32,000 nucleotides of DNA. Origin: Trichodesmium erythraeum IMS101. GTDB lineage: Bacteria > Cyanobacteriota > Cyanobacteriia > Cyanobacteriales > Microcoleaceae. The DNA lies in contig NC_008312.1 of the NCBI RefSeq assembly GCF_000014265.1, forward strand, positions 2,040,001 through 2,072,000, read 5' to 3'. The position numbers were made by a program, and so were the translations under genes. Under the pieces are notes generated by a model. That model did no database searches. It worked only from the letters and a program-made list of their open reading frames with translations, and was not told where the DNA came from. Shown piece after piece: positions 3,896 to 19,189 of this stretch (its first letter is position 1; the number at the start of each line of letters is the position of its first letter).

Positions 3896-5013
3896 AAATA
3901 GGAATACAAGACAGGAATTTTGCCACAGATTTACAGATTAATTTGAAACAGGTTAATCTTTGTTATGCTACTTAGAATGTTTGAAAAAAGAATAGACTTG
4001 ACTAGTGGTCTGTCAAAGAGATTTTGTGGATAATTTTTTTCTAATTACTCCCTTTTTTAACTAGGAGGTTTTCCTTCTCCAAAATTAGTAGTCAACTTCG
4101 GGAAAAAATTTTTATTTTTGACCCTAATATTGATAAATTTGAATTTAATTTATTTGGATTTTACAGAGAAAATAACTTTTTCTATTTTTTGAGACTAAAA
4201 AATTATGCTCCTAGAGTTAAAACAAAATATTGTCGTTTTATTATCATTTTTTTATCACCTAAATTTTTACTGAAAATATATTTTATTGTCTATTTAAGTA
4301 GAGAGTCTTAAAATTTTACCCCTATTATTTTCAAACCAATATATTCCTTGTTTTATTTATTTGAAAGTAAAACCTCAGTAAACATTCATGATTATTATGT
4401 ACAAAAGTGAAATGTTTAGACTTTTTTGTAACTCTTTTATTTGCGGTTTATCTTCATTAAAAATTACGTTCTTCAAGCAACTTACTTGTTTTATATTAAC
4501 AAATTTTCTTTGATTTATGGCAAAAATATTTCTGAGTATAACATCTTACTAATATAACACTTTACTACTAATAAAACACCAAGTTTTTTTCAGACTCTTT
4601 ATTTACCCTGATTTATGAACTGTCTATCCTAATTTTGAATATAGGGATAATTTTTATTTTCAAACTTTTATCCTCCAAAGGCAGTAATTATTCTCGTCAG
4701 AGCAGTATCCATGAATCTGATCTATTTCTTGATATCTACTAATTAGCCTTTCTACTTTTGCTAAATCTTTTAATGAATTAAATAGCTTAACTTTAAAGAT
4801 AGGAAGCTTGTCTCTAACGTGTCTAAATTTGTCACAAAAAATTATTATCCTCGGCATAAAAGATAAGAATTCAGCTATTAACAAGTAAATTTTAGCTTTG
4901 AGGATAAATTTTAATTTTCCCTCAGTCGAGGTATAGTATTACTTCCTTACAAAATAATACCTGTAGACCAAATACTAATAATTAAAGACACAAAATATTT
5001 CTGGTACAGCTAC

Positions 5014-7569
5014 TAATAAATAGTAATATAATTACCTGGTGAACCTGTTACCTCTTTCATTGTTAGAAGTACAAAAACAAAGATAAATTTGCCAACTTTA
5101 TCCTCTATTAATTGACTAATATCCAAGTCATTAAAATTAATAATCCCGTGTTTAACCACATTCTATATGAAAGTCAAAAGGTCGATTTAAGTCTTCAGCA
5201 GAAATAGCTTCAGTTCCCCAAATATCTGACCCTACCATCACTATTTTTAAGGTAGATAAATAACGACGGCTATTAATATCAGGTCTAAGCCTTCCATTAA
5301 TAAATAGTAATATAATTACCTGGTGAACCTGTTACCTCTTTCATTGTTAGAAGTACAAAAACAAAGATAAATTTGCCAACTTTATCCTCTATTAATTGAC
5401 TAATATCCAAGTCATTAAAATTAATAATGCCGTGTTTAACCACATTCTATATGAAAGTCAAAAGGTCGATTTAAGTCTTCAGCAGAAATAGCTTCAGTTC
5501 CCCAAATATCTGACCCTACCATCACTATTTTTAAGGTAGATAAATAACGACAACTATTAATATCAGGTCTAAGCCTTCCATTAATAAATAGTAATATAAT
5601 TACCTGGTGAACCTGTTACCTCTTTCATTGTTAGAAGTACAAAAACAAAGATAAATTTGCCAACTTTATCCTCTATTAATTGACTAATATCCAAGTCATT
5701 AAAATTAATAATCCCGTGTTTAACCACATTCTATATGAAAGTCAAAAGGTCGATTTAAGTCTTCAGCAGAAATAGCTTCAGTTCCCCAAATATCTGACCC
5801 TACCATCACTATTTTTAAGGTAGATAAATAACGACAACTATTAATATCAGGTCTAAGCCTTCCATTAATAAATAGTAATATAATTACCTGGTGAACCTGT
5901 TACCTCTTTCATTGTTAGAAGTACAAAAACAAAGATAAATTTGCCAACTTTATCCTCTATTAATTGACTAATATCCAAGTCATTAAAATTAATAATCCCG
6001 TGTTTAACCACATTCTATATGAAAGTCAAAAGGTCGATTTAAGTCTTCAGCAGAAATAGCTTCAGTTCCCCAAATATCTGACCCTACCATCACTATTTTT
6101 AAGGTAGATAAATAACGACAACTATTAATATCAGGTCTAAGCCTTCCATTAATAAATAGTAATATAATTACCTGGTGAACCTGTTACCTCTTTCATTGTT
6201 AGAAGTACAAAAACAAAGATAAATTTGCCAACTTTATCCTCTATTAATTGACTAATATCCAAGTCATTAAAATTAATAATGCCGTGTTTAACCACATTCT
6301 ATATGAAAGTCAAAAGGTCGATTTAAGTCTTCAGCAGAAATAGCTTCAGTTCCCCAAATATCTGACCCTACCATCACTATTTTTAAGGTAGATAAATAAC
6401 GACAACTATTAATATCAGGTCTAAGCCTTCCATTAATAAATAGTAATATAATTACCTGGTGAACCTGTTACCTCTTTCATTGTTAGAAGTACAAAAACAA
6501 AGATAAATTTGCCAACTTTATCCTCTATTAATTGACTAATATCCAAGTCATTAAAATTAATAATCCCGTGTTTAACCACATTCTATATGAAAGTCAAAAG
6601 GTCGATTTAAGTCTTCAGCAGAAATAGCTTCAGTTCCCCAAATATCTGACCCTACCATCACTATTTTTAAGGTAGATAAATAACGACAACTATTAATATC
6701 AGGTCTAAGCCTTCCATTAATAAATAGTAATATAATTACCTGGTGAACCTGTTACCTCTTTCATTGTTAGAAGTACAAAAACAAAGATAAATTTGCCAAC
6801 TTTATCCTCTATTAATTGACTAATATCCAAGTCATTAAAATTAATAATCCCGTGTTTAACCACATTCTATATGAAAGTCAAAAGGTCGATTTAAGTCTTC
6901 AGCAGAAATAGCTTCAGTTCCCCAAATATCTGACCCTACCATCACTATTTTTAAGGTAGATAAATAACGACAACTATTAATATCAGGTCTAAGCCTTCCA
7001 TTAATAAATAGTAATATAATTACCTGGTGAACCTGTTACCTCTTTCATTGTTAGAAGTACAAAAACAAAGATAAATTTGCCAACTTTATCCTCTATTAAT
7101 TGACTAATATCCAAGTCATTAAAATTAATAATGCCGTGTTTAACCACATTCTATATGAAAGTCAAAAGGTCGATTTAAGTCTTCAGCAGAAATAGCTTCA
7201 GTTCCCCAAATATCTGACCCTACCATCACTATTTTTAAGGTAGATAAATAACGACAACTATTAATATCAGGTCTAAGCCTTCCATTAATAAATAGTAATA
7301 TAATTACCTGGTGAACCTGTTACCTCTTTCATTGTTAGAAGTACAAAAACAAAGATAAATTCGCCAACTTTATCCTCTATTAATTGACTAATATCCAAGT
7401 CATTAAAATTAATAATGCCGTGTTTAACCACATTCTATATGAAAGTCAAAAGGTCGATTTAAGTCTTCAGCAGAAATAGCTTCAGTTCCCCAAATATCTG
7501 ACCCTACCATCACTATTTTTAAGGTAGATAAATAACGACGGCTATTAATATCAGGTCTAAGCCTTCCAT
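5014..7569. repeat. Tandem repeat, 284-bp unit x 9, more than 99% identical, non-coding
   Basis: Units start at 5014, 5298, 5582, 5866, 6150, 6434, 6718, 7002 and 7286, an exact 284-bp period. I found only three variable sites. The ORF track has no ORF on either strand between 4885 and 7579. Confidence 0.97.
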
Positions 7570-7789
7570 AATTAAATATTTGACTATTTTTGGCTTTTTT
7601 TTAAGGAATCAGACTATCCCATTCTTTTCCCCAGTAATTACTATTACCTGTGTAAAAAATAACTATATTCTATTATTTTATTCGAGCTATTTTTTGCTTT
7701 TTTTTATTGCTCCTTTAATTATGATTAATGGTAATAATGATCCAGGAATTATTACCATTACCTTGGGGAATTGGTAAACTTTCAAATCC

Positions 7790-8341
7790 TCAATAAGCAT
7801 CAATATTTAACAACACTCTCCTAGTGACATACTCTAACTCTCCAATTTTTTCTACTCCCAATTTATTGAAACCATAGGGTGTTCCAAAGTATTCTAAAAA
7901 GTTACCATTATCAAAATATTTTCTTTGATAAGTATTGACGCCAATATAACCTAAACTATCAAATTGATTACCAACTTTACCTAACTCAGTAACCACATAC
8001 TCATGATGAGCAATAACTTCATTTCCTCCGGATAATTTATAGTTTAGTAGACCGGGAATTATTAATTTCCAATTACGTTTGCCAAATACCGGAGCATAAC
8101 TTTGATAACCATTATCAAGGATAGTAAATTTACCTTTTTTGACTAATTTTAGGGATTATAATTTTTTTTTATTATTAATCCAATTAACTGAACCTACTTC
8201 ATCATTTTTGACAAAAATTTAAGGGCTCTATCTCTCTATTAAAGAAAGTTCATCAGCCATACTTGAGGAATAAAAATTACAGATATTTGATAGGATAAAA
8301 ATAAGTAATCTGCTCAATTTTAAGTAATTAGAAATTTTCAT
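7790..8341 (-). pseudogene. Pseudogene of a small secreted hypothetical protein (184 codons, three in-frame stops, no frameshift)
   Basis: One continuous frame runs from the ATG at 8341 to the TGA at 7790. Translation: MKISNYLKLSRLLIFILSNICNFYSSSMADELSLIER*SP*IFVKNDEVGSVNWINNKKKL*SLKLVKKGKFTILDNGYQSYAPVFGKRNWKL...NIDAY. In-frame stops are TAG (8228-8230), TAA (8219-8221) and TAA (8156-8158). The N-terminus looks like a signal peptide. The ORF-track ORF 7790..7996 is only the tail of this frame. Confidence 0.55.
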
Positions 8342-10365: not shown

Positions 10366-11547
10366 TGGTAATTTTTCGTGACTAAGTTTCAGTTAAATTT
10401 TTCGATTTTATTTTGATTAGATTTGAAAAAAATGATTTTTAGCTTAGAGTTTTAACTCCCTATTCTATTCTTTAATTAGCATAACTTCAACCTTCTATTG
10501 GCTCCATGATAATATTAACTGGGAGAGGGATCTATTTTTTGTAAAAGCTTATTTTAAGATTTTTATCAATTGTAATTATTCATAATTTTATAGAAGCATA
10601 TTTTTGAATTTATTTAATTGGATGAGTAGCAATTTATAAGTAATTAGTCTAGTTTTAGGCAAAGTCTATTTTTGATATTTTTGTAGTAAAATTTAATTTT
10701 TTTGCCACTTATTTTAATGATTATTTTGGTTCAGTAGTTAAATAGTTATTATGGTTAATATTTAGATGTTTTTCTTTTTTATTTTCCTCCGATTTTTTTT
10801 ATCTAAGTATTCTATCAAGTTGCTAATATCTGATTGTTATGGCTTCATATTTATTTTTTTACTCTCCTTGCTTAACTATCTGTTCTCAAGTCAAAAATAT
10901 TTTTCTAAAATAACTAGCTGATACTTCTTGAATAGGAATAATCAATTTTATAAAACATATACATCTGTTCATGGTAGTAATAAGACTCAACAAGATAATT
11001 CTCCGAGCAGAATATCTAGTTATCTACCTAGATATTAGGATTCGTTTCTATTAAATAATTGAGTTTTAAATAACCATATACTTAAAAAAACTTTTCATAC
11101 AACTCTGAATAAAGAATTGGCTGCCAATACTTTCTGAGTTATTCAAGGTTAGACTGAGTTTTTTCTAATATGTATATTTTACTAATTTCCAGTTAACTAA
11201 TCAAATTCCTGAAAATTATCTCTTGTATAATTAACTATATCTCTATCTACATCTGTATATAAGAAAATTCCCTTTAGTGCTTCTGATTAATTATTCTCTA
11301 TATTTGACTCAGTCGTTAAAATATATCTAAATATATCATCCTTATTTAAATAAAAAATTAACTGAGAAAAAAGTAGAAAAGTATAATCTAGTAGTAATTA
11401 TAGAAAATATATCAAATCATCAACACTATCGTGTTACTTACTCATAATAATCACCTAAAATTAAAATATAAAAAACATAATAACACTCTCTTACCTAACA
11501 AAATAAACCATATTTATGAGCATAATTTTTTCTTTTGCTTTTGGCTT

Positions 11548-11991
11548 TTACCTTAGAATTAAACCCTCATATTGAGGTACAGAATAATTAGTAATCTTAT
11601 ACAAAACATCCGCAGTTTCAGACACTACTAAAAAACCATGAGCAAAACCAGGGGGCACCCAAAGTTGTCGTTTATTTTCTGCACTTAAACAGCACCTACC
11701 CAACTTACCAAAATTAGGAGAATTTTTCCGAATGTCTATAGCAACATCAAATATTTCTCCCAAAACTACTCTTAATAATTTACCTTAAGCTTGTTGAATT
11801 TGATAATGCAAAGCTCGAAGTAAACCTTCACTATAACGAGAATGATTATCTTGCACAAATTCGAGATTTACTCCTGTTTTTTTGGAAAAATTACGTTAAT
11901 TAAAACTCTCCATAAAAAAGCCATATTCGTCTCCAAAAACTTTTAGTTATATTAATAATACTTCAGGAATTTATGTTTCAATTACATTCAT
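11548..11991 (-). pseudogene. Truncated, nonsense-riddled tandem duplicate of rfbC (first ~147 codons plus ~60-80 nt of upstream sequence)
   Basis: Colinear at the nucleotide level with 12230..12659. Same frame throughout, no indels. Four in-frame TAA codons: MNVIET*IPEVLLI*LKVFGDEYGFFMESFN*RNFSKKTGVNLEFVQDNHSRYSEGLLRALHYQIQQA*GKLLRVVLGEIFDV... The matching codons in the intact copy are GAA, GAG, CAA and CAA. Confidence 0.9.
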
Positions 11992-12113: not shown

Positions 12114-12659
12114 TTACATCAAATCAGCCTCTTTCAAAGTTGTACCATCTTTATCTTTTTGAGACAATTTTACCTCAATTCCATTTATTGGCCAACTAAT
12201 CCCAATTTCTGAATCATTCCACAGAATTGAACGCTCATATTCAGGTGCATAATAATCAGTAGTTTTATACAAAACATCCGCAGTTTCAGACACTACAAAA
12301 AAACCATGAGCAAAACCAGGAGGCACCCAAAGTTGTCGTTTATTTTCTGCACTTAAAAGATAGCCTACCCACTTACCAAAATTAGGAGAATTTTTCCGAA
12401 TGTCTACAGCAACATCAAATATTTCTCCCAAAACTACTCTTAATAATTTGCCTTGAGCTTGTTGAATTTGATAATGCAAACCTCGAAGTACACCTTGGCT
12501 AGAACGAGAATGATTATCTTGCACAAATTCGAGATTTACTCCTGTTTTTTCGGAAAAATTACGTTGATTAAAACTCTCCATAAAAAAGCCACGTTCGTCT
12601 CCAAAAACTTTTGGCTCTATTAATAATACTTCAGGAATTTCTGTTTGAATTACATTCAT
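12114..12659 (-). CDS. rfbC: dTDP-4-dehydrorhamnose 3,5-epimerase
   Basis: 181-aa ORF. Cupin-fold RmlC hallmarks FGDERGFF, RGLHYQ, QGKLLRVV.GEIFDVAVDIR and VPPGFAHGF. Confidence 0.92.
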   Translation of the reverse strand: MNVIQTEIPEVLLIEPKVFGDERGFFMESFNQRNFSEKTGVNLEFVQDNHSRSSQGVLRGLHYQIQQAQGKLLRVVLGEIFDVAVDIRKNSPNFGKWVGYLLSAENKRQLWVPPGFAHGFFVVSETADVLYKTTDYYAPEYERSILWNDSEIGISWPINGIEVKLSQKDKDGTTLKEADLM

Positions 12660-12679
12660 TTTTTTGACCTCATTTTTTA

Positions 12680-15600
12680 TAAAGGATAAGGAATAAGGTA
12701 AATACTATTTATTTTTTCCAAGTTTACAATTCTCCTATCCATAAATCAAAGACTAATTTATCTAGTAAAAAAAAATTAAACCAGGAAATTGATAATAAAA
12801 AATAGAACAAAACCTACTGATCATACTTTAATCTATTCAAAATAGATCCCAGACTCATTAAATTACTGGTTAGCTTTAATTTTACATCAGAAAATTCACT
12901 TTTTTCTACATCTAATTTTATCGTCTTTAGGAATAAATAAGAAATCAGTAAATTTTTCTATTGCTTGATAGGGAATAGGGAAAATCAAGTGAAAATTCCT
13001 TTAAACTTATTACCAAAAAGTTGATATTTTTAGACTCAATAGGAAGAGATAACAGAAAATATAAAGACACTGGAAACTGTTAGATAATAACTGTAACTGG
13101 TAACTGTTAAATAATAACTGTTACTACCTCTTGTTTTTCAAGCTTATAACTATCCTATCCATAAATTAAAGACTAATTTATCTAGATTAAAAAATTGAGA
13201 AATTGAGAGAAAAAAAGAGAACCAAATCTGCTAATAATACTTCAATATATTCAAAATATATCTCAGAATCATTAAATTACTGGTTAGCTTTGATTCTACA
13301 TCAGAAAATTCACTTTTTTCTACATCTAATTTTATCGTCTTTAGGAATAAATAAGAAATCAGTAAATTTTTCTATTGCTTGATAGGGAATAGGGAAAATC
13401 AAGTGAAAATTCCTTTAAACTTATTACCAAAAAGTTGATATTTTTAGACTCAATAGGAAGAAATAACAGAAAATATAAAGACGCTGGAAACTGTTAGATA
13501 ATAACTGTTAACTGTTAACTGTTAAATCATAACTGTTACTACCTCTTTTTTTTTCAAGCTTATAACTATCCTATCCATAAATTAAAGACTAATTTATCTA
13601 GATTAAAAAATTGAGAAATTGAGAGAAAAAAAGAGAACCAAATCTGCTAATAATACTTCAATATATTCAAAATCTATCTCAGACTCATTAAATTACTGGT
13701 TAGCTTTAATTTTACATCAGAAAATTCACTTTTTTCTACATCTAATTTTATCGTCTTTAGGAATAAATAAGAAATCAGTAAATTTTTCTATTGCTTGATA
13801 GGGAATAGGGAAAATCAAGTGAAAATTCCTTTAAACTTATTACCAAAAAGTTGATATTTTTAGACTCAATAGGAAGAAATAACAGAAAATATAAAGACGC
13901 TGGAAACTGTTAGATAATAACTGTTAACTGTTAACTGTTAAATCATAACTGTTACTACCTCTTTTTTTTTCAAGCTTATAACTATCCTATCCATAAATTA
14001 AAGACTAATTTATCTAGATTAAAAAATTGAGAAATTGAGAGAAAAAAAGAGAACCAAATCTGCTAATAATACTTCAATATATTCAAAATCTATCTCAGAC
14101 TCATTAAATTACTGGTTAGCTTTAATTTTACATCAGAAAATTCACTTTTTTCTACATCTAATTTTATCGTCTTTAGGAATAAATAAGAAATCAGTAAATT
14201 TTTCTATTGCTTGATAGGGAATAGGGAAAATCAAGTGAAAATTCCTTTAAACTTATTACCAAAAAGTTGATATTTTTAGGCTCAATAGGAAGAGATAACA
14301 GAAAATATAAAGACGCTGGAAACTGTTAGATAATAACTGTTACTACCTCTTTTTTTTTCAAGCTTATAACTATCCTATCCATAAATTAAAGACTAATTTA
14401 TCTAGATTAAAAAATTGAGAAATTGAGAGAAAAAAAGAGAACCAAATCTGCTAATAATACTTCAATATATTCAAAATCTATCTCAGACTCATTAAATTAC
14501 TGGTTAGCTTTAATTTTACATCAGAAAATTCACTTTTTTCTACATCTAATTTTATCGTCTTTAGGAATAAATAAGAAATCAGTAAATTTTTCTATTGCTT
14601 GATAGGGAATAGGGAAAATCAAGTGAAAATTCCTTTAAACTTATTACCAAAAAGTTGATATTTTTAGGCTCAATAGGAAGAGATAACAGAAAATATAAAG
14701 ACGCTGGAAACTGTTAGATAATAACTGTTACTACCTCTTTTTTTTTCAAGCTTATAACTATCCTATCCATAAATTAAAGACTAATTTATCTAGATTAAAA
14801 AATTGAGAAATTGAGAGAAAAAAAGAGAACCAAATCTGCTAATAATACTTCAATATATTCAAAATCTATCTCAGACTCATTAAATTACTGGTTAGCTTTA
14901 ATTTTACATCAGAAAATTCACTTTTTTCTACATCTAATTTTATCGTCTTTAGGAATAAATAAGAAATCAGTAAATTTTTCTATTGCTTGATAGGGAATAG
15001 GGAAAATCAAGTGAAAATTCCTTTAAACTTATTACCAAAAAGTTGATATTTTTAGGCTCAATAGGAAGAGATAACAGAAAACATAAAGACGCTGGAAACT
15101 GTTAGATAATAACTGTTACTACCTCTTTTTTTTTCAAGCTTATAACTATCCTATTCATAAATTAAAGACTAATTTATCTAGATTAAAAAATTGAGAAATT
15201 GAGAGAAAAAAAGAGAACCAAATCTGCTAATAATACTTCAATATATTCAAAATATATCTCAGACTCATTAAATTACTGGTTAGCTTTGATTCTACATCAG
15301 AAACCCCACTTTTTTTCAAAGCAAATTTTATTCTATCTAGGGATAAATAAGAAATAATTAAAGTGTTATTTTGGTTGATAATGAATAGGAAAAATTAACT
15401 GAAACTTCCTTTAAAATTATTACCAAAAAGTTGATAATTTTAGAATCAAGAGTGAGAGAGAAAATAAAATATAAAGAAGCTGAAAACTGTTAGTAAATAA
15501 CTGTTAACCGTTAACTGTTAACTAATAACTGTTACTACCTCTTTTTTTTCCAAGCTTATAACTATCCTATCCATAAATTAAAGACTAATTTATCTAGATT

Positions 15601-16359
15601 AAAAAATTGAGAAATTGAGAGAAAAAAAGAGAACCAAATCTGCTAATAATACTTCAATATATTCAAAATATATCTCAGACTCATTAAATTACTGGTTAGC
15701 TTTGATTCTACATCAGAAACCCCACTTTTTTTCAAAGTAAATTTTATTCTATCTAGGGATAAATAAGAAATAATTAAAGTGTTACTTTGGTTGATAATGA
15801 ATAGGAAAAATTAACTGAAACTTCCTTTAAAATTATTACCAAAAAGTTGAGGAATTTAGAATCAAGAGGGATAGATAAAATAAAATATAAAGAAGCTAAA
15901 AACTGTTATTAAATAACTGTTAACCGTTAACTGTTAACTAATAACTGTTACTACCTCTTTTTTTTCCAAGCTTATAACTATCCTATCCATAAATTAAAGA
16001 CTAATTTATCTAGATTAAAAAATTGAGAAATTGAGAGAAAAAAAGAGAACCAAATCTGCTAATAATACTTCAATATATTCAAAATATATCTCAGACTCAT
16101 TAAATTACTGGTTAGCTTTGATTCTACATCAGAAACCCCACTTTTTTTCAAAGTAAATTTTATTCTATCTAGGGATAAATAAGAAATAATTAAAGTGTTA
16201 CTTTGGTTGATAATGAATAGGAAAAATTAACTGAAACTTCCTTTAAAATTATTACCAAAAAGTTGAGGAATTTAGAATCAAGAGGGATAGATAAAATCAA
16301 ATATAAAGAAGCTAAAAACTGTTAGTAAATAACTGTTAACCGTTAACTTATAACTGTTA
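12680..16359. repeat. Tandem array of 9 units (388-420 bp). Each unit is a decayed copy of the last ~90 codons of the methyltransferase gene plus its downstream spacer
   Basis: The landmark caag(c/t)tt recurs at 12719, 13139, 13555, 13971, 14359, 14747, 15135, 15551, 15967 and 16376. The last occurrence is inside the real CDS. Periods are 420, 416, 416, 388, 388, 388, 416, 416 and 409. The units align colinearly with 16360..~16630. Confidence 0.95.
13501..13540. repeat. Heptamer microsatellite (AACTGTT)n, STRR-like; one tract per unit of the 12.7-16.4 kb array (representative copy)
   Basis: Sequence ataactgttaactgttaactgttaaatcataactgttact. Units of 388 bp have a shorter tract (ataactgttact), which accounts for the 28-bp (4 x 7) length difference from 416-bp units. 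A similar tract, ctgataactgataactaataactgtt, lies at about 8491-8516. Confidence 0.85.
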
Positions 16360-17220
16360 TTACCTCTTTTGCCCCCAAGCTTCCAATTCTCCTATCCATA
16401 AATTAAAGACCAATTTATCTAGATTAAAAAATTTAGAAATTGAGAGGAAAAAAGAGAACAAAACCTGCTGATAATACTTCAATCTATTCAAAATATATCC
16501 CAGGCTCATTAAATTACTAGTCGGCTTTGATTCTACATCAGAAAATCCACTTTTTTCCAAAGCAAATTTTATCGTATCTAGGGAGAAATAAGTCAAGTGT
16601 TCTGTTGGTTTATAATGATACCAAAAAGACCCTAATAATCTATGCCAAAACCCTCCCACATTTGGAGTAGTAATAAAAATCCATCCTCCAGGTTTCAAAA
16701 GTTGATAAGCTGCTGTTAATTGAGCAATAGGATCTGTCGTATGTTCAATCATATCTTGCAACATAATCAAATCAAAAGAATTAGGTTCAAAACTATGATT
16801 AAACAAATCCCCTTGATGTACAGATAAGCCCCTACTTTTAGCAAAATTTACTGCATATTCTGAGACTTCTAAACCTTGAGGTTTATCCCATCCTAAATCT
16901 TTTGCTTGCTCCAAACAATCACCTAAAGCACAACCCACATCTAATAATAAACCTTGACCAAAAAGTTTTTTCTCTGCTTTTAATAAACGTTTACGAAAAG
17001 TCTGATTATTAATTTTCATCCCTTGGAAATAATTAGAATATCCTCCTTTAGGGAAATCGTTATTATAATAACTTTCCTGATAAATAGTAGTAGGATTTAC
17101 TGGCGGATTATTATCCCATACCATACCACATTTAGAGCATTTTGCTAATAGATAGTTATCCCCTGCTTTATAATAGTTAAACTTGTTTGTATGACATAAG
17201 GGGCAATAATTTTTTTGCAT
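16360..17220 (-). CDS. Class I SAM-dependent methyltransferase with an N-terminal Cys4 zinc-ribbon
   Basis: 286-aa ORF. CPLCHTNKF...CSKCGMVW zinc-ribbon. Motif I LLDVGCALGDC, plus LIMLQDMIEH and LKPGGWIFITTPN. Its last ~270 nt are the master copy of the downstream tandem array. Confidence 0.85.
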   Translation of the reverse strand: MQKNYCPLCHTNKFNYYKAGDNYLLAKCSKCGMVWDNNPPVNPTTIYQESYYNNDFPKGGYSNYFQGMKINNQTFRKRLLKAEKKLFGQGLLLDVGCALGDCLEQAKDLGWDKPQGLEVSEYAVNFAKSRGLSVHQGDLFNHSFEPNSFDLIMLQDMIEHTTDPIAQLTAAYQLLKPGGWIFITTPNVGGFWHRLLGSFWYHYKPTEHLTYFSLDTIKFALEKSGFSDVESKPTSNLMSLGYILNRLKYYQQVLFSFFLSISKFFNLDKLVFNLWIGELEAWGQKR

Positions 17221-17446: not shown

Positions 17447-19189
17447 TCAAGACTTTTCTACCCTGACATTAACTTCATTGTTTAATTTAACAAATTCTTG
17501 TTTATTAGGGTTATAAACCCAAGCTTTAATAACAGTTTCTCCTACAGGTAAAGATTTCGCTGAAAATTTTACTTTCCATCTGGCTCTACTATAAAGTTTT
17601 GACTTCATAACTTTAGCAATATCATAACTCTCTAAGTTAACAATAGCATTAGCAAAAAAATCTTGATTATTACCAGAAGAAAGTAACACTAAGTTAGGTT
17701 GTTCTTTTCCATCAGGTTGAATTGCCCAACCTCCCAAATTTAGAGTTTCTTCACCTTTAATAATTAGAGGTTTTGCAGTTGTTTGAGGATGATCTAAATA
17801 ACCATAATTTTGTTTTGGTTGTTTGATAAATTGTAGATTTTGAGGAAATTCTCGCCATCCGAGTTTTGCCATAATTTCTGCACCTCGTCTGACTAGCCAA
17901 GTTTTGCCATTCATTAACACTAAACAACTATCTGGAGATGTTTTTATAAATTCTGAATCTTCTAAATAGTTAATTATTTCTAGACATTCTTTCCGACTCT
18001 CAATATAGGGAAAACTTAATTTAATATTCCTCACAACATAGAGGGAGTTTATGAGCATAATTCCTGTGATTGCAACAGCTAAAATTTTATATATTAATAA
18101 ATATTTTTGTTGCTTTTGTATAAACAAAGCCAAGAGATAAACTAAAGAGATAATTAATAATATTGATGTGGTTGTATATCGGGAAGAAGTCATAGCATTT
18201 TCCACCCCATATTCTGCTCTACCTACAGAAATAGATAGAGCAGAAATTATAGAAAATGTACCTATTGTTAACCAAGGAATAGTAGGAGGAAAAAAAGTTA
18301 GTTTATACAAAGGTTTCTTGAGAAAGTAATATGTAAAAAATAGGAAACTAGAGAATAATATTAATCCTGTTAAAATTGCAGGTATGGGAAGTCTAACTAG
18401 AGGTAAACCTATAACGGCTAAAAAATAATTTATTATCAAAAATGGTTTTTCTGTAAATAAAAATGGTTTTGGTTCGCGAATTGGATTGAAGTTAATTGCG
18501 TAGATAATACATGAAACTACAAACAGTAAGCTCCAGATCACTAGTCTAGTAATTTTTTGTTTAGCTTTCCCTTCTATAGACAATATTGACGGAATTAAAA
18601 CTAGCCAAGAAAATAATCCTTGTATTAATGTAAAACTTCCGATAAAACAAAATATTGCTGCTAGAAATATTCTTCTTTTTGCCGATATATTCTCTAAGAC
18701 ATGAATCAAATATACCGCCATTATTAAACATAAGTTTGTGAGAAACCAAAATAGAGTAAATCCCCATAACCAGTTCTGATGTTGTACTAGGGAAAATAAA
18801 AATAGACAGCTTAAAATATTTGCTATATTTATAATATTTTGATTTTGATTATGAAAGTTAATTTGGGCTATTTTACAAACAGCAAAAAATGTGATGATGA
18901 CAAAAATTACACTACAAATTATTTCAGCTTGAGTGTTCCATTTAGTGGCAAAAGCTAAGGCAGTAATGATTAATTTTGGTATTAATATTCTGTGATGTCC
19001 GTGTACTGTGAAAAAGTCAAAAAATGTGGCGTTTCCTTCAGCAACTTTCTCAAATATAGGGGTTAATCTCCATTGGTCCCAGTAGGGAACATTGACACTA
19101 AAATTAGCGAGAAACCAAAGGAGTAATAAGACTGGAAAAATATATAGGGTTACTAATAATATTCTGGTTCGGGAAAATATTTTTCGCAT
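17447..19189 (-). CDS. Polytopic integral membrane protein with a C-terminal soluble domain; putative GT-C-type glycosyltransferase; paralog of 2045..3895
   Basis: 580-aa ORF. Multiple transmembrane segments, then a hydrophilic C-terminal domain (GGWAIQPDGKEQPNLVLLSSGNNQDFFANAIVNLESYDIAKVM...IKAWVYNPNKQEFVKLNN). That domain is colinear with the tail of the 616-aa ORF. Confidence 0.6.
   Translation of the reverse strand: MRKIFSRTRILLVTLYIFPVLLLLWFLANFSVNVPYWDQWRLTPIFEKVAEGNATFFDFFTVHGHHRILIPKLIITALAFATKWNTQAEIICSVIFVIITFFAVCKIAQINFHNQNQNIINIANILSCLFLFSLVQHQNWLWGFTLFWFLTNLCLIMAVYLIHVLENISAKRRIFLAAIFCFIGSFTLIQGLFSWLVLIPSILSIEGKAKQKITRLVIWSLLFVVSCIIYAINFNPIREPKPFLFTEKPFLIINYFLAVIGLPLVRLPIPAILTGLILFSSFLFFTYYFLKKPLYKLTFFPPTIPWLTIGTFSIISALSISVGRAEYGVENAMTSSRYTTTSILLIISLVYLLALFIQKQQKYLLIYKILAVAITGIMLINSLYVVRNIKLSFPYIESRKECLEIINYLEDSEFIKTSPDSCLVLMNGKTWLVRRGAEIMAKLGWREFPQNLQFIKQPKQNYGYLDHPQTTAKPLIIKGEETLNLGGWAIQPDGKEQPNLVLLSSGNNQDFFANAIVNLESYDIAKVMKSKLYSRARWKVKFSAKSLPVGETVIKAWVYNPNKQEFVKLNNEVNVRVEKS

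Follow-up and report, generated by a model that had tools for sequence, protein, structure and literature searches.

Within a 32,000-bp window from the genome of Trichodesmium erythraeum IMS101 (the whole stretch of DNA analysed, on contig NC_008312.1, where the genome coordinate is the window coordinate plus 2,040,000), nine 284-bp units lie head to tail on the minus strand at 5014–7569 (IMS101 2,045,014–2,047,569). By sequence comparison, the array is the last ~94 codons (residues ~258–351) of an adjoining full-length cyclase-family pseudogene, copied head to tail, with each unit running on into the first two nucleotides of the stop codon. We interpret it as a young, lineage-specific amplification of dead DNA, which resembles a variable-number tandem repeat (VNTR), encodes nothing and shows no sign of having its own function, and we give this reading a probability of about three in four.

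Tandem Repeats Finder placed the array at 5014–7578, with a period of 284, 9.0 copies, 99% matches, 0% indels and a score of 5053. Cutting 284-bp registers from 5014 gave nine exact units that end at 7569, each with at most three differences from unit 2, and a unit-by-unit comparison limited the variation among them to four nucleotide positions at three sites. From unit 1 to unit 9, position 132 of the unit is C G C C G C C G G in turn, positions 255–256 are GG in the two edge units (1 and 9) and AA in the interior units 2–8, and position 77 is C in unit 9 only and T in the other eight. An initial annotation, made from the sequence letters, had listed nine near-identical 284-bp units and three variable sites, all of which were confirmed. 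Nine copies of 284 bp at 99–100% identity are beyond anything that chance could produce. The array ends sharply at 5014 and 7569: a tenth register mismatches at 196 of 284 positions (69%), and the 284 bp leftward are only 35% identical. No open reading frame (ORF) of at least 60 aa was found on either strand between 4884 and 7580, and the same frameshift is carried by every unit, in agreement with the earlier description of the array as non-coding and satellite-like.

The initial annotation had further suggested that the array descends from an amplified, decayed gene fragment, quoting two minus-strand open stretches that we found verbatim in the units. A Pfam search with the stitched unit peptide and the flank peptide gave nothing that reached threshold, and the parent was obtained only through a large protein search. 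For this, a 280-aa query was built by joining the open stretches found in the right flank to those in one unit, and it returned 46 homologues, nearly all of them carrying PF04199 and some named kynurenine formamidase. The best of these, annotated ‘cyclase family protein’, comes from Trichodesmium sp. MAG_R04 (E=2.4e-107, 67% identity, 100% coverage). When a 351-aa Okeania protein (P0003) was aligned to the region with tblastn, residues 1–302 matched 8341–7433 and residues 304–351 matched 7431–7288 in a different frame, and the pair of matches for residues 254–302 and 304–351 recurred eight further times at 284-bp spacing. The two quoted peptides correspond to residues ~258–302 and 304–351 of the 351-aa PF04199 protein. 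The homologue search and tblastn identify the parent as the adjoining cyclase-family pseudogene and strongly support the origin of the array from a decayed gene fragment.

The original copy of this kynurenine-formamidase-like pseudogene lies on the minus strand at 8341–7286, with an ATG at 8341 and a 3′ tail that is unit 9 itself. One codon has been inserted in it, and its reading is broken by eight in-frame stops and, near residue 303, by a frameshift, the one that is repeated in every unit. The remainder of the dead gene with its eight stops (7570–8341) abuts unit 9. Residues that are invariant in the four homologues inspected are replaced in the pseudogene, where GTQFDGLGH reads GNQFDSLGY. 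The annotated 68-aa ‘hypothetical protein’ Tery_1342 (7790–7996, minus strand) is an open stretch inside this pseudogene. The locus shares with the PF04199 family a full-length homology and a conserved chromosomal position, and differs from it in being non-functioning.

The conserved position is seen in relatives, with Okeania, Dapis and Trichodesmium MAG_R04 each having one copy of an intact cyclase gene directly downstream of a thioesterase gene. The intact 351-aa gene begins 300–400 bp past the thioesterase gene in loci L013 (Trichodesmium MAG_R04), L014 (Okeania), L023 (Dapis) and L027, and lies further downstream of it in L009 (Okeania) and L016. In T. erythraeum the pseudogene holds the same position, with the thioesterase gene Tery_1343 upstream of it. 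The early stop codons of the pseudogene are identical in all T. erythraeum metagenome contigs recovered, which indicates that the cyclase gene was dead before its tail was amplified. Across 7570–8341, the wild alleles (L002, L004, L005, L006, L030, L035, L038 and L039) differ mainly in the length of poly-A runs, and these changes, for example KKKL*/KKKF and KKKQKIARIK/KKSKK*, shift the frame differently between lineages. This variation is the continuing decay of an already dead gene.

The units stop two bases into the stop codon, and the interior junctions read TAT TAA|TGG. At the 3′ end of unit 1, the unit gives the ‘TA’ of a TAG stop and the left flank contributes the G, such that the last copy reads TAT TAG. 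The outer boundaries have the sequence GCTAC|TAATAAATAG on the left and TTCCA[T|AATTAAATA]T on the right. Here, the start of every unit, TAATAAATA (5014–5022, plus strand, at the left boundary), has a counterpart in TAATTAAATA (7569–7578, plus strand), which comprises the last base of unit 9 and the beginning of the right flank. Save for a 1-nt indel the two are identical, and they form an imperfect direct repeat that can be written TAAT(T)AAATA. Wild single-copy alleles, for example that of contig L002, already have both of them, and the boundary repeat thus predates the duplication. Bacterial duplications can arise by slippage or illegitimate recombination between short direct repeats, and to judge from the junction sequence the founding duplication of this array probably arose in this way, between TAATAAATA and TAATTAAATA.

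To compare copy number, contigs from many samples were retrieved through two proteins of the window. The LEEM17-1 scaffolds, from three samples, and GCA_018457135.1, which is probably strain GBRTRLIN201, match the window in their flanks at 100% identity (3.2 kb and 3.9 kb). The five scaffolds with IMS101-identical flanks contain unit–unit junctions and a 100-N gap, from which there are at least two to three copies, with at least three partial copies in GCA_018457135.1. Since these independent short-read assemblies also hold unit–unit junctions, the array is not an artefact of a single reference; the count of nine rests solely on the finished IMS101 sequence.

Seven gap-free wild contigs from different samples (L002/L036, L004, L005, L006/L034, L035, L038 and L039) contain exactly one unit, in flanks that are 99.4–99.9% identical to the window on the left (97.2% in L038) and 99.1–99.7% identical on the right. 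At positions 77, 132 and 255–256, the haplotype C, G, GG, which is that of unit 9, occurs in L002/L036, L005 and L039, and in L004 with one extra change. The haplotype C, G, AG is found in L006/L034 and also in L030, where the unit holds a 100-N gap, while L038 has C, G, AA and L035 has T, G, AA. In IMS101, T77 is found in the unit adjoining the left flank and GG in the unit adjoining the right flank. All seven wild contigs carry combinations that are absent from IMS101, either the left flank with C77 or, in L035, AA with the right flank, which argues against their being straightforward collapses of an array like that of IMS101. Read most simply, these sequences indicate that the single copy is ancestral and common in the sea, and that unit 9, still attached to the pseudogene, retains the ancestral sequence. 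The amplification then probably occurred in the IMS101/GBRTRLIN201 lineage, and the array would be young and lineage-specific. Of the causes first offered for the high identity of the units, recent amplification or else homogenisation or selection, recency is favoured by the single copy in wild contigs with flanks only 0.1–0.9% different, and there is no indication of selection. A search with exact patterns for the unit and the unit–unit junction gave 0 matches in GTDB genomes, JGI metagenomes and viral contigs, with a within-unit control that also gave 0, and is uninformative on wild copy number.

The distribution of variants along the array follows its edges. Unit 9 (7286–7569, minus strand), the edge joined to the pseudogene remainder, has C77/G132/GG255–256, the same as the commonest wild single-copy allele. 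Unit 1 (5014–5297, minus strand), the distal edge, has T77/C132/GG, having probably kept the ancestral GG together with derived T77 and C132. The interior units 2–8 (5298–7285, minus strand) all have T77 and AA255–256, with two CpGs lost, and are G C C G C C G in succession at position 132. A uniform interior with ancestral states at the edges (fully in unit 9, at 255–256 in unit 1) is the classical edge effect of tandem arrays, and the edge-versus-interior pattern noticed in the initial annotation is correct. All four combinations of the states at 132 and at 255–256 are present among the units, which requires exchange within units and is expected with unequal crossing-over. Amplification of an 852-bp trimer had also been suggested from the order at position 132, and here the data give a hint only. 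At this single informative site, five of six lag-3 comparisons match. Five C and four G can be ordered in 126 ways, 12 of which do as well, and the 3-unit period lacks significance (P=0.095, or P=0.21 if lags 2–4 are allowed). Starting from C G C C G G, a single unequal exchange with an offset of three units would be enough to produce the observed order.

The ancestral unit contains five CpGs (at 77, 134, 170, 251 and 254), and those at 77 and 254 are lost in the interior units. Two of the three variant events destroyed a CpG. All differentially methylated cytosines of IMS101 lie in CpG (PMC7947765), which makes deamination of 5-methylcytosine (m5C) a plausible cause of the changes at these sites. 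Positions 77, 255 and 256 are polymorphic among the wild single-copy alleles too, an overlap with P of about 1e-5 by site and 4.5e-4 by event. Recurrent mutation at methylated CpGs accounts for this most simply, the alternatives being allele exchange and an older array. Two other explanations for individual changes were dropped. A UV-type CC-to-TT tandem mutation for GG/AA does not suit a site that is a CpG and whose AG intermediate is carried by wild contigs (L030, L034). Gene conversion with an intact paralogue as donor, considered for a ‘restored’ Cys codon at 255–256, would need a T. erythraeum paralogue, which was not among the homologues found.

The history that we propose begins in an ancestor of T. 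erythraeum, in which the 351-codon cyclase-family gene downstream of Tery_1343 had already been inactivated, with its eight stops and frameshift. In the IMS101/GBRTRLIN201 lineage, the last 284 bp of the dead gene would have been duplicated head to tail at the boundary repeat. Expansion to nine probably followed through unequal exchange between homologous units, on sister chromosomes or among multiple copies of the chromosome, as suggested by the four combinations at 132 and 255–256, the uniform interior, the ancestral edges and the apparent duplication of a 3-unit block. Most of the few differences between units would be C-to-T substitutions at CpGs, which carry m5C methylation in IMS101. We take the array to be most likely neutral, and presumably tolerated since T. 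erythraeum keeps large amounts of non-coding DNA.

Repeats of this type have been described before from the T. erythraeum genome, the closest precedent being the Tery_0080 array, and the array at 5014–7569 is a young member of the type. The Tery_0080 array of IMS101 consists of seven tandem repeats of 736–973 bp, accounts for 44.7% of all primary reads, and has in each repeat a duplicated 3′ part of the adjacent reverse-strand gene (Pfreundt et al. 2014, Sci Rep 4:6187, PMC4143802). The two arrays share a genome, the head-to-tail arrangement of near-identical repeats (seven there, nine here), the duplicated 3′ part of a gene, and edge repeats that are more divergent than the interior. They differ in that the Tery_0080 repeats contain extra sequence without known similarity that carries a very strong transcription start site (TSS), whereas here the 284-bp unit is a gene tail only, the parent is dead, and neither a promoter nor high expression is evident.

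Given this precedent, the 284-bp array might itself be a functional array of non-coding RNAs (ncRNAs) or promoters, with a TSS and a small RNA for each unit and with copy number setting the dosage, as in the Tery_0080 array. Its architecture matches both that array and a second one of 416-bp units at 12712–16592, and the non-coding share of TSSs is unusually large in T. erythraeum (PMC4143802). We nevertheless consider this unlikely. Rfam gave 0 matches at gathering thresholds within the window, and a consensus scan found no promoter-like or terminator-like site inside a unit, with 7 promoter-like sites in the region against 22.5 in shuffles. RNA folding on the two strands was no better than in shuffles (z −0.69 and −1.00), and the array is absent from the top-20 transcripts, and three further verified ones, in Table 1 of the primary transcriptome (PMC4143802). 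The unit is also purely dead coding sequence, whereas the Tery_0080 repeats hold their TSS in additional non-genic sequence, and one copy is apparently enough for wild lineages. 

We found no mention of the Tery_1341–1344 locus in the literature. In the published 2025 expression table, which covers protein-coding genes only and has no feature inside the array, Tery_1342 has ~25 counts per million (CPM) over 207 nt (~120 CPM/kb), the upstream Tery_1343 ~145 CPM/kb, and Tery_1341, downstream of the array, ~18 CPM/kb. As the pseudogene stretch Tery_1342 is transcribed at a level between those of Tery_1343 and Tery_1341, weak minus-strand read-through from Tery_1344–1343 into the pseudogene and on into the array is likely. 

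The roughly 7-fold drop per kb from Tery_1342 to Tery_1341, across an array that lies between expressed minus-strand genes, could be taken as a sign of selection for an effect in cis, with the array as a spacer, insulator or attenuator between the rfbD–thioesterase unit and Tery_1341, or as an adaptive remnant from culture. The multi-copy state was seen only in assemblies with flanks identical to those of cultured IMS101. We judge such a role improbable: the unit contains no intact gene, which makes classical dosage selection inapplicable, the partial copies in GCA_018457135.1 mean that the array is not private to one IMS101 culture, no terminator-like element was found, and nothing distinguishes the expression of the neighbours with the array from that without it.

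Several observations weigh against a young, neutral array. That the scan found no consensus promoter argues only weakly against each unit being transcribed. Assembly from short reads can collapse arrays, and the wild single copies could be collapses of arrays composed differently from that of IMS101, while a protein look-up ranks the longest contigs first and favours those that run through the locus. The interior-type haplotype T77/G132/AA is carried by L035, which belongs to a different lineage, and the shared variants could mean allele exchange or an older array instead of recurrent CpG mutation. Moreover, AA at 255–256 restores a Cys codon that is conserved in the intact homologues, leaving the direction of this change ambiguous. 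One alternative is an old array that evolves in concert and predates the split of the T. erythraeum lineages, with the wild single copies as assembly collapses or secondary contractions, and the overlap at three of the four variable nucleotides, the L035 haplotype and the clearly old age of the neighbouring 416-bp array speak for it. Such an explanation seems very improbable to us. It would require every one of seven independent gap-free contigs, among which there are four or more haplotypes, to be a collapse, and by reasoning an array of identical units in a de Bruijn graph should make MEGAHIT contigs stop where units meet, instead of giving a single clean copy. The sites that vary both in the array and among wild alleles are CpGs, which are mutational hot spots when methylated, and the units are only 1–4 nt away from unit 9, the parent copy to which they are attached. 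The idea of an assembly artefact, or of a piece of a mobile element, finally, found nothing in its favour, can be set aside almost entirely and was rejected. Unit–unit junctions are present in the five independent scaffolded assemblies, and synteny shows the unit to be the tail of a gene on the chromosome. The unit lacks terminal inverted repeats and has no further copy elsewhere in the window, and it matched nothing in 72,556 plasmids, 50,697 phage records and IMG/VR contigs. Membership of a known mobile element, raised in the initial annotation as a possible refutation, is thus unsupported by inverted repeats, dispersed copies or matches to mobile replicons.

In the second array of the window (12712–16592), the final ~80 codons of the methyltransferase Tery_1346 (residues 206/209–286) occur as nine decayed copies, each with ~180 bp of other sequence. 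Its units are 416 bp long at both ends and 388 bp inside, and it overlaps the 3′ end of the intact Tery_1346 gene (16360–17220, minus strand). This array is old and evolves in concert, since the copies in the 416-bp blocks are 95–96% identical to each other but have only 67–75% protein identity to the parent methyltransferase. It shrinks to about 1–2 units in all short-read contigs. The cyclase-tail array resembles it in being made from the 3′ tail of an adjacent minus-strand gene, directly downstream of that gene, in its edge-versus-interior pattern and in its collapse in short-read assemblies. The methyltransferase-tail array differs in being much older, in its intact parent and in the ~180 bp of non-genic sequence, which includes runs of the heptamer TAACTGT. 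About five of these heptamers (14-bp period AACTGTTAAATAAT) are found per 416-bp unit, at 13069–13125, 13489–13538, 13905–13954, 15485–15534 and 15901–15950. From their sequence, the runs look like an iteron or binding-site cluster, part of which seems to be lacking in the 388-bp interior units. A third tandem array is present at 4–443 (period 70 bp, 6.3 copies, identity 99%), about 300 bp downstream of the 3′ end of a minus-strand glycosyltransferase gene (749–1705), and may be cut by the start of the window.

Three arrays, those of Tery_0080, of the Tery_1346 methyltransferase tail and of the cyclase tail, share the same build. On this ground one might propose a recurrent, possibly directed process that turns gene 3′ ends into tandem arrays, with the nine-unit array as an early, polymorphic stage in the birth of an ncRNA array. 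We regard this as doubtful, and taken alone the array is an ordinary neutral amplification. The shared architecture does give a testable hypothesis, namely that tandem arrays in T. erythraeum are seeded preferentially by the 3′ ends of genes; were a recurrent process at work, the cyclase-tail array would be a natural snapshot on the route to the most abundant non-coding RNA of the cell.

Outside this genome, the array is comparable with the tandem amplifications of other bacteria. As studied in Salmonella and E. coli, duplications form between short direct repeats independently of RecA, and RecA-dependent unequal exchange follows. The terminal short direct repeats, exact period and young, unstable state of the array are common to bacterial duplication–amplification and to VNTRs, and the copy number may likewise differ between close relatives, to judge from the assemblies (one in the seven wild contigs, at least two to three plus a gap in the IMS101-like scaffolds). 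Classical amplifications span whole genes under dosage selection and typical VNTR units are shorter, whereas here the unit is a 284-bp piece of a pseudogene under no evident selection. With eukaryotic satellites that have higher-order repeats, such as alpha satellite, the array shares non-coding sequence, a homogenised interior, ancestral or divergent edges and a possible 3 × 284 bp block. It differs from them in having nine copies instead of thousands, a higher-order period at P=0.095, no structural role in the chromosome and a bacterial genome as its setting.

About 40% of the Trichodesmium genome is non-coding, which raises the question of how such DNA originates and persists in an organism of the oligotrophic ocean. 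The locus shows one route to non-coding DNA at nucleotide resolution, in which a dead-gene tail bounded by a 9–10 bp direct repeat appears to have grown to 2.6 kb within the span of divergence of one species, with the unamplified allele still segregating in the ocean. The array may be used as a VNTR strain marker for T. erythraeum lineages, and the annotation of Tery_1342 should be corrected to a pseudogene fragment.

Other features of the window concern its sugar-related genes and spacers. Four of its proteins are identical to ABG50656 (Tery_1341), ABG50659, ABG50660 and ABG50661 of T. erythraeum IMS101. Downstream of the array, Tery_1341 (ABG50656; 2045–3895, minus strand; genome 2,042,045–2,043,895) encodes a large membrane protein of 616 aa, for which UniRef gives ‘Glycosyltransferase RgtA/B/C/D-like domain-containing’. 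It and a 580-aa ORF (17447–19189), which together flank the sugar-nucleotide genes, are distant paralogues (23% identity over ~340 residues, E=2.6e-10), and neither matched a family in Pfam. Just downstream of the intact rfbC gene (12114–12659), a partial rfbC duplicate on the minus strand (11554–11991) covers residues 1–146 with 82% protein identity, and has 92.7% DNA identity to 12223–12672. It is a local duplication that is now a pseudogene, and the splitting of ORFs in this region differs between wild contigs. Two stretches between genes, at 3896–5013 and 10366–11547, are each free of ORFs for more than 1 kb, with stops throughout all six frames, and fit the large non-coding fraction reported for the genome.

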